Under the pieces are notes generated by a model that was not told the origin of the DNA, did no database searches, and was given only the letters and a program-made list of their open reading frames with translations. DNA of 14,437 nucleotides, from assembly GCA_038128265.1 (NCBI GenBank), contig JAYPJE010000082.1, positions 1 through 14,437 of the forward strand. Reading direction: 5' to 3'. Shown here piece by piece: positions 2,621 through 6,940 of the stretch. The position numbers and the translations under genes were made by a program. The first letter of the stretch is position 1. Every line of letters begins with the position of its first letter. This DNA is from Gemmatimonadota bacterium (GTDB taxonomy: Bacteria > Latescibacterota > UBA2968 > UBA8231).

Positions 2621-2884
2621 ATAGCATCCTCCAGTAGAATCTTTGAGTAGCGATCCCCTGTATAAGAAAACGGCTGCGACGGCGCAAGCTATTTTATGGA
2701 ACACTTAACGGGCACGTTCGACTGATTAACCCTGCGTATTGGACCCAAACCGCACTGCGCACAAACACGCCAAGCATTGCCTGCATCCTGCGGTGGCATA
2801 GATTCAGACAGGCATAGTAAATGCGGCATACGGCACCGCAGACCGATCTGCCTGTGGGGCGGGCTCGCACGAAAGAAATTCCAT

Positions 2885-3496
2885 ATGAGAAGTCGACCCG
2901 AGAATGGACATCGCCATTGGCGCCGACGCGCAGTGCAGCGGCTGTGGGGACTCGCCCTGCTGGTGCTGCCAGTGGCCTGCGCGGACGAAGGCGACCCATC
3001 CACTGGCGATGCGGTCGACTTTGCGCGCTGGACAAACCCCGTTACCGGTGCCGTTGTCGAGCTGCCCGAAGGCTGGCGCCACAGTCCGGACACGGCGGCC
3101 AGCGGCCGGACCGTCGTCGGCTACTTTCTGCCGCGCTACGCTTGGATGAAAGGCCAGTACGGCCATATCAGCCTGCACCGAGAAGACCTAGCGGACGCGC
3201 CCCTCAGCATTGAAGAGTACAGCGAGCGTCTAGTGGCCTATCTACAACCCCAAGCAGAAAGCGTTACGCAGACCGTCTTCGCCAAGGGTGCCGACGTAGA
3301 AAAGGCGCATTTTGAGGTAGAGACTATTTACCAGCGCAAACGCAAGGTGCTGCGCTGCCTGGTATGGACGCGCGGCGACGGCCACTTCTGGTACGCCATT
3401 ACCGAACTGCTGGCCAGCGACCGCGCGTTTATCGCCCAAGCCACGCCCGTCGTCGACCGACTTGTCGACAGCACGGCACCTATACCCGCACCTTAA
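2885..3496 (+). CDS. Putative lipoprotein of unknown function (possibly PsbP/DcrB-like fold)
   Basis: Basic N-terminus, then LWGLALLVLPVAC (lipobox-like VAC). AVVELPEGW resembles the PsbP/DcrB start motif. Start is ATG 2885 or GTG 2933, not 2777. Confidence 0.6.
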   Translation: MRSRPENGHRHWRRRAVQRLWGLALLVLPVACADEGDPSTGDAVDFARWTNPVTGAVVELPEGWRHSPDTAASGRTVVGYFLPRYAWMKGQYGHISLHREDLADAPLSIEEYSERLVAYLQPQAESVTQTVFAKGADVEKAHFEVETIYQRKRKVLRCLVWTRGDGHFWYAITELLASDRAFIAQATPVVDRLVDSTAPIPAP

Positions 3497-4230: not shown

Positions 4231-5019
4231 ATGGGCGACACTGGTATAACACATCGCTTTTTGAGCAGCATTCCGCACAACGCAGAGGCGCGATGCGCCG
4301 CGCGTGTACCTCCCTGGAGGCTCGCTACTATCGTCTTCTGGCTGGTTGGGTTCGCGGTGCTGTCAGCCGTCGTCGCCGGTGGCTGCGCGCTCGGCATCTG
4401 GCACCTGTCGTCGCGTTACTCGATGCATCTGAACCACCAAGAAATGGCTTTTGCCGTTACCACATCGTCCTATGCGCTCTGCAGCGCAATGGGTCTGACT
4501 TTTATACTGCACCAGCTGAGAAAATCATCGCACTCACTGCGCGACCTGTGGGGTCCACCGACCCTGCGCGGGCGGCACATTGCGCTGGGCCTCGCCGCCG
4601 GCGCACTGCTGATGGGCATGCAGGCGTGGCTGCACGCGCTCTTGGCAGGCTTTCCCACGTCGCCGCCCTACGCCATGCGGATAGGCTGGCCACTGGCCCT
4701 GGCCATAGAGCTGCTGGTAAACGCCGTTTTCATTGGCTGCACTGAAGAAGTGCTCTTTCGCGGCGCCGTTTTCCGCACGCTGCAGGGGCGCTTTTCAAGC
4801 GGACCAGCCGTCGTCCTTTCCACCGCTCTATTCGCACTATTCCACTTTGACTACGCGCACAGCCTGCCAGCCATGACCTATGTCGTAGCCCTGGGCGTTT
4901 CGACGGCGCTGCTGTTGGTGCATACGCACTCGCTCAACGCCTCCGTCGCCCTGCACGCGGCCGGCAACGCGGCCGAGCGCCTGATACACTACGCGCCCTA
5001 CGCGCTGCCGCCGACCTAA
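4231..5019 (+). CDS. CPBP/Abi (type II CAAX) family intramembrane glutamic protease
   Basis: Motifs EEVLFRG, FALFH and HAAGN (EExxxR, FxxxH, HxxxN) in a polytopic membrane protein. Start uncertain. Confidence 0.92.
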   Translation: MGDTGITHRFLSSIPHNAEARCAARVPPWRLATIVFWLVGFAVLSAVVAGGCALGIWHLSSRYSMHLNHQEMAFAVTTSSYALCSAMGLTFILHQLRKSSHSLRDLWGPPTLRGRHIALGLAAGALLMGMQAWLHALLAGFPTSPPYAMRIGWPLALAIELLVNAVFIGCTEEVLFRGAVFRTLQGRFSSGPAVVLSTALFALFHFDYAHSLPAMTYVVALGVSTALLLVHTHSLNASVALHAAGNAAERLIHYAPYALPPT

Positions 5020-5025
5020 AGAGCC

Positions 5026-5640
5026 GTGCGAGACAAGACCATGCGCCAGGGAAATAAATGCGTTGAGCCGCCGCTCACCGCTGGGGATGCCAGCGCGAAC
5101 CAGAGACGTGCGATGGGGGGCATACTCCTACTGATAAGTGCCGTGGCGTTAGCGAGCAGCCTGTATGCCCTTGCACCGCCAGAAACTCGAGACGGCGCAC
5201 GCCGCCACTGGGCGGCCTGGTCTAAGGGTGCCCAATACAAAGGGCTGCAGGACGTCACGCTGCAGACGCATCGCACCAACTGCGGTCCGGCCGCCCTGCA
5301 CATGGCGCTGGCCCGGCTGGGCATTCACCGCCCACTGGAGGCGATCGAGGCGTCCACCGGCACCGACCGCAGCGGCACCTCGCTCTTTGCGCTGGGACGG
5401 TATGCCGAAGACCAGGGCGTAGGCGCAGCTCTATGGCACCTAAATATGGACGACCTGGTCGAGCGCAACCAACTGCCAGCCATCGCCTTTGTCGAGAACA
5501 ACCACTTTGTCGTCATCGACTCTATCGGGCACGGCGGTGACCTGTGGCTGCGCGATCCGGCCATTGGCCAACTGCACATGACGCGCGCGGCGTTTCAGCG
5601 CATATGGCAGGGCGAGGTCATCCTGCTCGACGCGCCGTAG
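5026..5640 (+). CDS. Stand-alone C39 cysteine peptidase with N-terminal membrane anchor/signal
   Basis: LQTHRTNCGPAAL (oxyanion Gln, catalytic Cys), GTSLFAL, NHFVVID (His), RDPAIG (Asp), FQRIWQG. Hydrophobic GGILLLISAVALASSLYALA follows RR. No ABC domain. Start may be 5026 or 5041. Confidence 0.92.
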   Translation: MRDKTMRQGNKCVEPPLTAGDASANQRRAMGGILLLISAVALASSLYALAPPETRDGARRHWAAWSKGAQYKGLQDVTLQTHRTNCGPAALHMALARLGIHRPLEAIEASTGTDRSGTSLFALGRYAEDQGVGAALWHLNMDDLVERNQLPAIAFVENNHFVVIDSIGHGGDLWLRDPAIGQLHMTRAAFQRIWQGEVILLDAP

Positions 5641-5645
5641 TCTTT

Positions 5646-6013
5646 TTCACCGTGTGGGGGAACGGCTGTTCTAACGACCGGTATTTCAAAGGAGCATTAC
5701 ATGATTAAACGCATCTGCAGCAGCTACGCGCTGGCGGCAGCCATGGCGATGGGACTCTTTGTCCAGAGCATCACGGCCAACCGCAGCGAGGTGATATCCC
5801 GGCCAATCTCGCTGTTGGAGGCACAGCATACAAAGGGCGCGGCCCTGGGCATTGTCACCATACCTTGGTCCGTTTACATCGCGGCCATAACCGTCGATGC
5901 CGCCTTTGTCGCGAGCATGGTAAACCTATTTATCGCATCGAGCGAAGCCGAAGAAAAATAGACCTTTCACGCGCACTCTAAGCGCTGACAAGTAGAGCGC
6001 TCCACACGGTGAA
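5646..6013. repeat. 12-bp perfect inverted repeat flanking the precursor gene
   Basis: TTCACCGTGTGG (5646-5657) is the exact reverse complement of CCACACGGTGAA (6002-6013). Confidence 0.9.
5701..5961 (+). CDS. Putative secreted peptide precursor: signal peptide + double-glycine-type (GA) leader + hydrophobic core
   Basis: Strong RBS AAAGGAG at 5688-5694. MIKR + hydrophobic stretch + ITA forms a signal peptide. ISLLEAQHTKGA matches the register of LSxxELxxIxG(G/A). Directly downstream of a C39 peptidase. Confidence 0.8.
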   Translation: MIKRICSSYALAAAMAMGLFVQSITANRSEVISRPISLLEAQHTKGAALGIVTIPWSVYIAAITVDAAFVASMVNLFIASSEAEEK

Positions 6014-6019
6014 TGGGCA

Positions 6020-6053
6020 GGGCTGTCGACCTCGGCAACGGGGTCGACAGCCC
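6020..6053 (+). other. Strong RNA stem-loop (15 bp, GCAA tetraloop) after the precursor gene
   Basis: GGGCTGTCGACCTCG-GCAA-CGGGGTCGACAGCCC gives 14 Watson-Crick pairs plus 1 G-U and a GNRA loop. No U-tract follows. Confidence 0.85.
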
Positions 6054-6118
6054 CGAGCCTAGCGGCGCTCCGCTACGCCGAGCAGCGCACGCACCCGCTT
6101 ACCGAAAGAGGCGAAACT

Positions 6119-6940
6119 ATGGAAATGAGAAACCGTTCATCAGGTAGCTTTATGAGTGACAGCGCGTTCACCCGCATGCTGAGCCTGCCTTTTGGCCACG
6201 TGCACGGCAGAGCGACCAGCGCGCTCCTGCTGTGCGCTTCCACTTACTTCTTGCTGCCTCAGCTCAGGCTCTCCGTTCAGCGCGCCTTCGCACTGAGCGA
6301 CTACGCCGCCGTCTTCCAGAACGCGCTGCCCTTTGCGCTGTTGTTGCTGTCGCTCTTAGCGTTTGCCCACATAGAACGCGTACCGCTCACGGCGCGCACA
6401 TTGGGCCTCTCTCTCGATATGCCGAACGAGCGAAAAAACTCCGTGCTCCTGTATGTCGGGATCATGGCGCTGGGCGGTTTGTGCATTGCCCTATTCCTGG
6501 GCTACTTCAAGCAACTGGGCATTCCCATACACCGCATCAGCACCTATATCGGCCAAGATGCTCCGCTGCTGCATGCGACCACCGATGCCAACAGCTGGCA
6601 CTCCCTGCTGCTCGACGTGCTGCCGCACTGCATAGGCGTTTTAGTGCTGGCACCCGTCATAGAAGAGATCTACATCACCGCTATCGTATTCCCCGTGCTG
6701 CGCAACAGGTTGGGCTTTGTCGCAAGCGCCGGCATTGCCGCTTCTATCTTTGCGCTATTTCACGCCAGCGCCAACCCACTAGCCGACGGGCAGTGGCTGC
6801 CCTTTGCCATCATTGCCGTCGGGCAGATCGCATCGTTCACGCTCTATCAGGGCACGCGATCGCTCTATCCATCCATCGCCTCGCACGCCCTGCGCAACTT
6901 TGCCGTCCTTTTTGTAGAGCTCAGCGCGCTCGTTGGATGA
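6119..6940 (+). CDS. Second CPBP/Abi family intramembrane protease (variant motif 1)
   Basis: LAPVIEEIYIT, FALFH, TRSLYPSIASHALRN; multiple TM segments; AGAGG upstream of ATG 6119. Confidence 0.88.
   Translation: MEMRNRSSGSFMSDSAFTRMLSLPFGHVHGRATSALLLCASTYFLLPQLRLSVQRAFALSDYAAVFQNALPFALLLLSLLAFAHIERVPLTARTLGLSLDMPNERKNSVLLYVGIMALGGLCIALFLGYFKQLGIPIHRISTYIGQDAPLLHATTDANSWHSLLLDVLPHCIGVLVLAPVIEEIYITAIVFPVLRNRLGFVASAGIAASIFALFHASANPLADGQWLPFAIIAVGQIASFTLYQGTRSLYPSIASHALRNFAVLFVELSALVG

Follow-up and report, generated by a model that had tools for sequence, protein, structure and literature searches.

Gene-enclosing duplexes in bacterial messengers

Operons for peptide natural products need far more precursor than enzyme, and the usual account of how this is achieved is the hairpin that follows the precursor gene. 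Long-range pairing within one messenger has been described in other operons and genes. In the polycistronic yabJ-spoVG mRNA of S. aureus the region preceding a gene pairs in cis with the intercistronic region that follows; the duplex is an RNase III substrate and exerts sub-operonic control, according to the preprint (bioRxiv 10.64898/2026.09.18.752551). The B. subtilis hbs gene has a short leader-trailer helix, a 14-bp pairing of its 5′ and 3′ UTRs that modulates RNase Y cleavage, as outlined in PMC5737220. The helix of S. aureus icaR is likewise short and pairs with the ribosome site, RNAIII offers another leader-trailer or gene-enclosing duplex, and such 3′ UTRs, hbs included, are summarised as not conserved in close relatives by the review that treats them (PMC7821165). 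In the RNase III stems of pre-rRNA and in long-range mRNA duplexes, as presented in PMC11780869 and PMC6212723, distant arms loop out a functional unit; B. subtilis RNase III is reported to cut duplexes of 10–36 bp spanning hundreds of nucleotides (PMC11780869), and the duplex minimum given for the E. coli enzyme is 11 bp (PMC1540722). Finally, in the selective processing and stabilisation outlined for cip-cel, intergenic stem-loops were proposed to set unequal output of co-transcribed genes (PMC4423207).

The locus described here lies in a stretch of 14,437 nucleotides from a Latescibacterota genome, hereafter the window, where a helix predicted from sequence alone would enclose a whole precursor gene, distant arms again looping out a functional unit. 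As with yabJ-spoVG, the sequence ahead of a gene would pair with the intercistronic stretch behind it, inside a polycistronic mRNA. The yabJ-spoVG duplex, in the preprint's description, starts in a 145-nt 5′ UTR and represses the downstream gene, whereas here both arms are intercistronic, a peptide precursor is enclosed and a hairpin abuts the second arm (arm 2). The helix has the same 14-bp length as that of hbs; unlike hbs and icaR as portrayed in PMC5737220 and PMC7821165, it lies inside an operon and is conserved in two genera and in a record labelled Poribacteria, and unlike that of icaR it leaves the ribosome site unpaired. With cip-cel it has in common that the gene required in excess is followed by a 3′ hairpin, and it adds a gene-enclosing helix to the local stem-loops described in PMC4423207. 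A literature search with most subscription journals outside its coverage returned no account of a bacteriocin or RiPP precursor gene lying inside such a helix. Since long-range mRNA duplexes are already known, the surprise is only moderate. The repeat is most likely an mRNA helix that serves sub-operonic control of the precursor gene.

The precursor locus

The features of the locus, by position in the window, are the following.

4231–5019, + strand: CPBP (Rce1-like/Abi) intramembrane protease 1 (PF02517, E 3e-17)
5026–5640, + strand: stand-alone C39 peptidase with an N-terminal hydrophobic segment (PF03412, E 3e-26)
5646–5657, + strand: core of arm 1 of the long-range helix, which 5658–5659 extend by G-U and G-C (sequence)
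5688–5694, + strand: precursor-gene Shine-Dalgarno, AAAGGAG, not part of the helix (sequence)
5701–5961, + strand: 86-aa precursor-like gene (ORF, family alignments)
6000–6013, + strand: arm 2 of the long-range helix, core 6002–6013 (sequence)
6020–6053, + strand: 15-bp hairpin right after arm 2 (structure conserved, no U-tail)
6119–6940, + strand: CPBP intramembrane protease 2, 3′ of the hairpin (PF02517, E 2e-12)

The order on the + strand is CPBP protease, stand-alone C39 peptidase, small ORF and CPBP protease, and the C39, precursor and CPBP genes are presumably co-transcribed. CPBP protease 1 is present only in the genome of the window (G000) and in G002; in G005, L047 and three genomes of a second genus, g14, a GT2-TPR glycosyltransferase gene replaces it before C39. 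The second genus and G005, where this arrangement is seen (L043:3379-8573, L033:1509-4049 and L041:8993-13974), may modify the peptide; g14 also encodes a large protein with a transglutaminase-like domain upstream of C39. In G146 a TonB-dependent receptor and a TPR protein are encoded downstream of the C39/precursor locus. The C39 peptidases are stand-alone proteins of 181–204 aa in which Cys, His and Asp are invariant in the alignments. Their N-terminal hydrophobic segment would be a membrane anchor, and CPBP protease 2 would act in immunity or in processing.

The precursor protein carries a conserved double-glycine-type motif, PIxxxEAxxxKG(G/A), with S as a variant at the last position (PIxxxEAxxxKG(G/A/S)); its hydrophobic core is variable but contains an Asp that never changes. 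Its N-terminus appears as a signal-like helix by eye and in a low-confidence structure model (pLDDT 60); the ESM Atlas gave no match. No Pfam or NCBIfam family scored over its cut-off; two relatives gave sub-threshold matches to TIGR03949, a class IIb bacteriocin model. The family comprises 31 protein clusters, whose database labels point to Latescibacterota. We infer that the small ORF encodes a bacteriocin-like precursor whose signal peptide would direct its export and whose double glycine would be the cleavage site of the membrane-anchored C39. Class II double-glycine bacteriocins, which are served by PCAT C39 transporters, resemble it in the GG/GA-type motif with upstream hydrophobic positions before a hydrophobic core, the C39 peptidase and the CPBP neighbours, as far as these are characterised in PMC10885120. 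Unlike the class II systems of that source, the C39 peptidase is not fused to an ABC transporter and the precursor has a signal-like N-terminus.

Related C39 genes followed by a signal/GG precursor occur in Bacteroidota-type genomes. The pair of a stand-alone C39 with its N-terminal hydrophobic segment and a small signal-like/GG precursor (window 5026–5961; L051–L063) is often accompanied by Yip1-like, CPBP or ABC genes, and the system was seen in Latescibacterota-type and Bacteroidota/Ignavibacteria-type genomes. A search of the literature by title or abstract start found nothing on a C39-associated signal/GG precursor family, and this signal-peptide/double-glycine family with its stand-alone C39 in Latescibacterota- and Bacteroidota-type genomes is apparently undescribed. 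One 121-aa member, P0004, has two tandem leader-GG-core units behind one signal-like region. Viral contigs yielded no precursor match; three distant C39 loci were seen in them.

Elsewhere in the window, positions 961–2704 (− strand) hold two tandem paralogous HTH_3 proteins (ORFs of 282 and 302 aa, 82% DNA identity over 300 nt), whose C-terminal domain has no assignment and which are kept as a pair in G002 and G004. A hypothetical protein at 2777–3496 (+ strand), convergent with a YhcH gene, is 70–87% identical in three genomes of the genus and has no Pfam or NCBIfam match.

The inverted repeat and its conservation

The sequence TTCACCGTGTGG is located at 5646–5657 (+ strand) and its exact reverse complement at 6002–6013. 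Arm 1 is separated by five bases from the C39 stop, which ends at 5640; arm 2 follows the precursor stop after 40 nt of trailer and stands 6 nt before the 15-bp hairpin (6020–6053, GCAA loop). The arms enclose a 5′ spacer, in which a strong Shine-Dalgarno is located, followed by the 86-codon ORF and the trailer. The perfect 12-bp repeat around a precursor-like gene, on which the original prediction was built, is thus found at these positions, together with the proposed continuation of the RNA pairing inward, through G-U and G-C, to 14 bp. A GNRA hairpin had been placed just past arm 2, and it is there; its GNRA loop, however, is not kept in relatives. Folding of 5641–6070 with RNAfold, suggested as a check, gives the helix in both the MFE and the centroid structures (z −3.9; 0/100 shuffles).

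The 12-mer is not a dispersed repeat, as the genome-wide search for it had been meant to establish: three exact copies exist in the 4.29-Mb genome, the third one on another contig. The chance expectation below 1e-3 that accompanied the prediction holds per gene, but not genome-wide, where a perfect flanking repeat of at least 12 bp was found at 2 of 1260 genes against 0.55 expected (roughly called genes with both flanks, the null being flanks re-paired at random). Because of these figures a single genome cannot establish the repeat; it is the orthologues that establish it. The sole other gene in G000 with such a repeat (G000:C19 16248-17163) has one of 13 bp, A/T-rich, that may be due to chance.

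A search of 168 genomes of the phylum found the precursor in seven. One further genome, L047, was reached through the C39 alignment, and six metagenome contigs with the precursor were found by a pattern without any arm sequence, made of the ribosome site and coding positions only; arm 1 is present in the five of these contigs that have upstream DNA (5/5), and arm 2 in all six (6/6). A metagenome scan with a single C39 protein confirmed 0 of 80 candidates. Both arms occur, at the same place and in the same orientation, in 13/13 loci having both flanks, and a fourteenth locus (L080), which ends upstream, has arm 2. As L084 duplicates L082, 12 loci were aligned. Their precursor DNA is 53–67% identical to the window, arm 1 begins 4–7 nt past the C39 stop (12/12) and 54–58 nt before the precursor ATG, and the distance from the precursor stop to arm 2 varies from 20 to 63 nt. 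Invariant columns in the 12 aligned loci amount to 11/12 in arm 1 and 9/12 in arm 2 (20/24 in total), compared with 5/27 in the leader spacer, 1/36 in the trailer and 2/46 at third codon positions. The motif formed by arm 2 and the hairpin has eight places in the 168 genomes, all of them the precursor locus or its remnant; in 76 genomes arm 1 has two further matches, which are without arm 2 and within long ORFs. Judged by its conservation, the repeat is real and selected.

A remnant in L096:1500-2450 (G146:C2 near 4143175) retains arm 2, the hairpin and a CPBP-paralogue gene, without precursor or arm 1. It is located downstream of a gene-fragment mosaic and a transposase-like ORF, and in its arm 2 a C stands at the position of the wobble U of the intact g14 loci.

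In the Bacteroidota-type C39/precursor loci no enclosing helix was found in 9 of the 10 tested, so that the system can work without it; the tenth was borderline (1/60 shuffles). The ten were drawn from the 13 of L051–L063, with L055, L056 and L058 left out. By this comparison the enclosing helix is specific to the clade of the 13 loci that have both arms.

Evidence for pairing

All 12 core pairs are intact in all 12 sequences, and nine are invariant. One core pair has changed on both sides, being A-U in eight loci and G-C in four, and two alternate between G-C and G-U. The covariation sought in orthologues as a check on the prediction has therefore been met with in the form of one compensatory change and two G-C/G-U changes, which, added to the conservation, support a long-range 5′-3′ RNA helix. 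The compensatory change counts as one event, because it is confined to a single branch (4 vs 8 loci, support 100/100). The two wobble changes are probably one event each, although the tree does not resolve the groups that carry them. The loci are related and not independent. The nine invariant pairs are uninformative on pairing, since DNA sites fit them equally well.

RNAalifold finds the helix and the hairpin without guidance. In all 11 loci folded, the mean pairing probability of the core is 0.86–1.00, with or without flanking operon sequence, and in each of them the best helix exceeds 59–60 of 60 shuffles. Contiguous pairs range from 12 to 18, reaching 31 when loops are counted. The longest duplexes are those of L047, G144, G146 and G151 (17–18 contiguous pairs, 28–31 in total, −42 to −47 kcal/mol); in G000, G002 and G004, where the DNA repeat is a perfect 12 bp, there are only 12–14 contiguous pairs. 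The sense duplex exceeds the antisense one in stability in only 8/12 loci. At the 13th position the bases do not pair in 7/12, four of these being A-C, equal to G-U on the other strand. Rfam covariance models gave no family match (best E 5). On this evidence base pairing of the arms in the operon mRNA is likely, and it would place the precursor gene in a loop beside the 3′ hairpin.

The roughly 30 pairs in four precursor loci resemble the 32-pair rRNA processing stems of G146. Unlike these stems, the helix has only 12–14 contiguous pairs in G000, G002 and G004, and it shows no notable sequence match to the rRNA stems of the host lineage. In the rRNA operon of G146 (L088, L100) one 32-pair stem of leader and trailer encloses the 16S and another the 23S, and both stems contain sequence that we take to be boxA-like. 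The g14 helix and the 16S stem show a 6-bp likeness (CAUGUG/UACAUG), which was considered and is within chance by a rough estimate.

The hairpin after arm 2

The hairpin covaries freely: 8 of the 11 counted pairs have changed on both sides, and 5/22 columns are invariant against 20/24 in the arms. A standard intrinsic terminator was considered and rejected, the U-rich tail being absent in 12/12 loci, which have 0–3 U in the next 8 nt; the promoter/terminator scan did not call the hairpin, and the terminal hairpin of the G146 rRNA operon has, unlike it, a U7 tail. By its structure it looks like an exonuclease barrier or a processing signal rather than a standard terminator. That the outer six helix pairs are invariant while the hairpin drifts suggests a sequence-specific reader.

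A model for unequal output

We propose, as a reading that these data make reasonably probable, that the long-range helix sets the precursor message apart from the operon through processing and end protection. The helix would release the precursor message from the operon transcript, and this message would outlast its neighbours. Two routes can be envisaged: (i) RNase E/G or RNase Y would cut among the few A/U-rich bases that separate arm 1 from the C39 stop, and trimming as far as the hairpin would leave a message of 410–460 nt with its 5′ end paired and its 3′ end blocked by the hairpin, or (ii) RNase III would cut inside the helix and free the cistron, as it does with pre-rRNA. By either route precursor output would rise above that of the flanking proteases, an excess of precursor over enzymes being the purpose. 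End protection is slightly preferred over excision by RNase III, because the 12–14 bp helix of three genomes leaves little stem after a double cut.

Models for RNase III (TIGR02191), RNase E/G and RNase Y score over cut-off in 5/5 genomes tested. RNase J is not over cut-off in any of the five, and protection from a 5′ exonuclease is therefore not invoked. The 12–18 contiguous pairs exceed the duplex length that RNase III requires (at least about 11 bp); a helix of 12 bp is only slightly longer than the E. coli minimum and falls inside the 10–36 bp of the B. subtilis long-range sites. When the helices were scored with the E. coli RNase III pair matrix (pair counts of PMC6212723 Table S4, ten central positions), 30–73% of permuted helices scored as high as the real one or higher in the 11 loci; with the same matrix, rRNA stem controls are weak too (7% and 76%), the 23S stem likewise showing no enrichment. 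This E. coli motif score gives no support to RNase III in particular.

The helix might also act in the opposite sense or as a switch, marking the precursor message for decay started by RNase III in the manner of icaR or yabJ-spoVG, or freeing arm 1 from local 5′ folds and so opening the ribosome site once the gene is fully transcribed. In 8/11 loci the segment from the Shine-Dalgarno to the AUG is cheaper to open in the full-length RNA than in the nascent leader (in G151, 4.9 against 10.2 kcal/mol), and repressing 5′-3′ duplexes are on record among the cases covered by PMC7821165 and bioRxiv 10.64898/2026.09.18.752551. However, the shift is reversed in 3/11 loci and below 1 kcal/mol in two more, the helix pairs with neither the Shine-Dalgarno nor the start codon, arm 1 beginning 54–58 nt before the ATG, and a strong Shine-Dalgarno with a stable 3′ hairpin would better suit high expression; we regard decay or switching as unlikely. 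Translation control of the type I toxin kind, which the original prediction also entertained, is not borne out, the helix excluding both the Shine-Dalgarno and the start codon and the opening cost not being raised in 8/11 loci; in this the helix differs from icaR as well as from type I toxin messages. An upstream ORF from an AUG or GUG within arm 1 was rejected, its frame and length not being conserved by eye, and the promoter/terminator scan found no antisense unit near the locus.

The arms could instead be two inverted DNA sites for a sequence-specific protein, with consensus TTCACCRTRTRG, placed about 350 bp apart and possibly looping the precursor gene, in which case their complementarity would be a by-product. 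Each arm is an imperfect palindrome, TTCAC-N3-GTGGA, core variation is entirely G/A on the motif strand, and the primary sequence of the arms is far better kept than that of the hairpin (20/24 vs 5/22 columns). It is this contrast between invariant outer pairs and a drifting hairpin that keeps DNA sites in consideration, at a low probability: a binding site needs neither the change of the same central base in both copies nor a complementarity that continues for about 30 pairs in four loci, arm 2 with the hairpin is confined to the locus or its remnant (eight places, 168 genomes), no arm 2 accompanies either of the further arm 1 matches (76 genomes), and the scan shows no sigma-70-like promoter near arm 1. 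Much less credible is a role of the arms in recombination, whether by inverting or exchanging the precursor cassette or as termini of a miniature mobile element, to which the perfect 12-bp repeat of G000, G002 and G004, the core peptide varying between relatives and the patchy distribution (7/168 genomes) would lend themselves. The inversion that the original prediction offered as its alternative is not supported by the single orientation of 13/13 loci and by arms that differ at one DNA position in 8/12; moreover, no target-site duplication or dispersed copies were seen, no recombinase or transposase was recognised in the part of the ORFs that was inspected, in the window and in the 18 kb surrounding two g14 loci, and the cassette follows the C39 and CPBP genes. 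The least probable reading is a chance repeat passively inherited; 0.55 such repeats are expected per 1260 genes in this genome, but the arms are conserved far above spacer and third-codon columns and their core pairs are unbroken.

Implications

As a tentative possibility, a helix enclosing the precursor would be a recurrent, convergent route by which bacteriocin and RiPP operons obtain precursor in excess; here the invariant UUCACC/GGUGAA end beside the hairpin would be read sequence-specifically by a nuclease or an RNA-binding protein, giving a message closed at both ends. A conserved helix around a whole precursor cistron within an operon would, if true, constitute a compact and portable booster of one gene's output, of possible use for heterologous peptide production.
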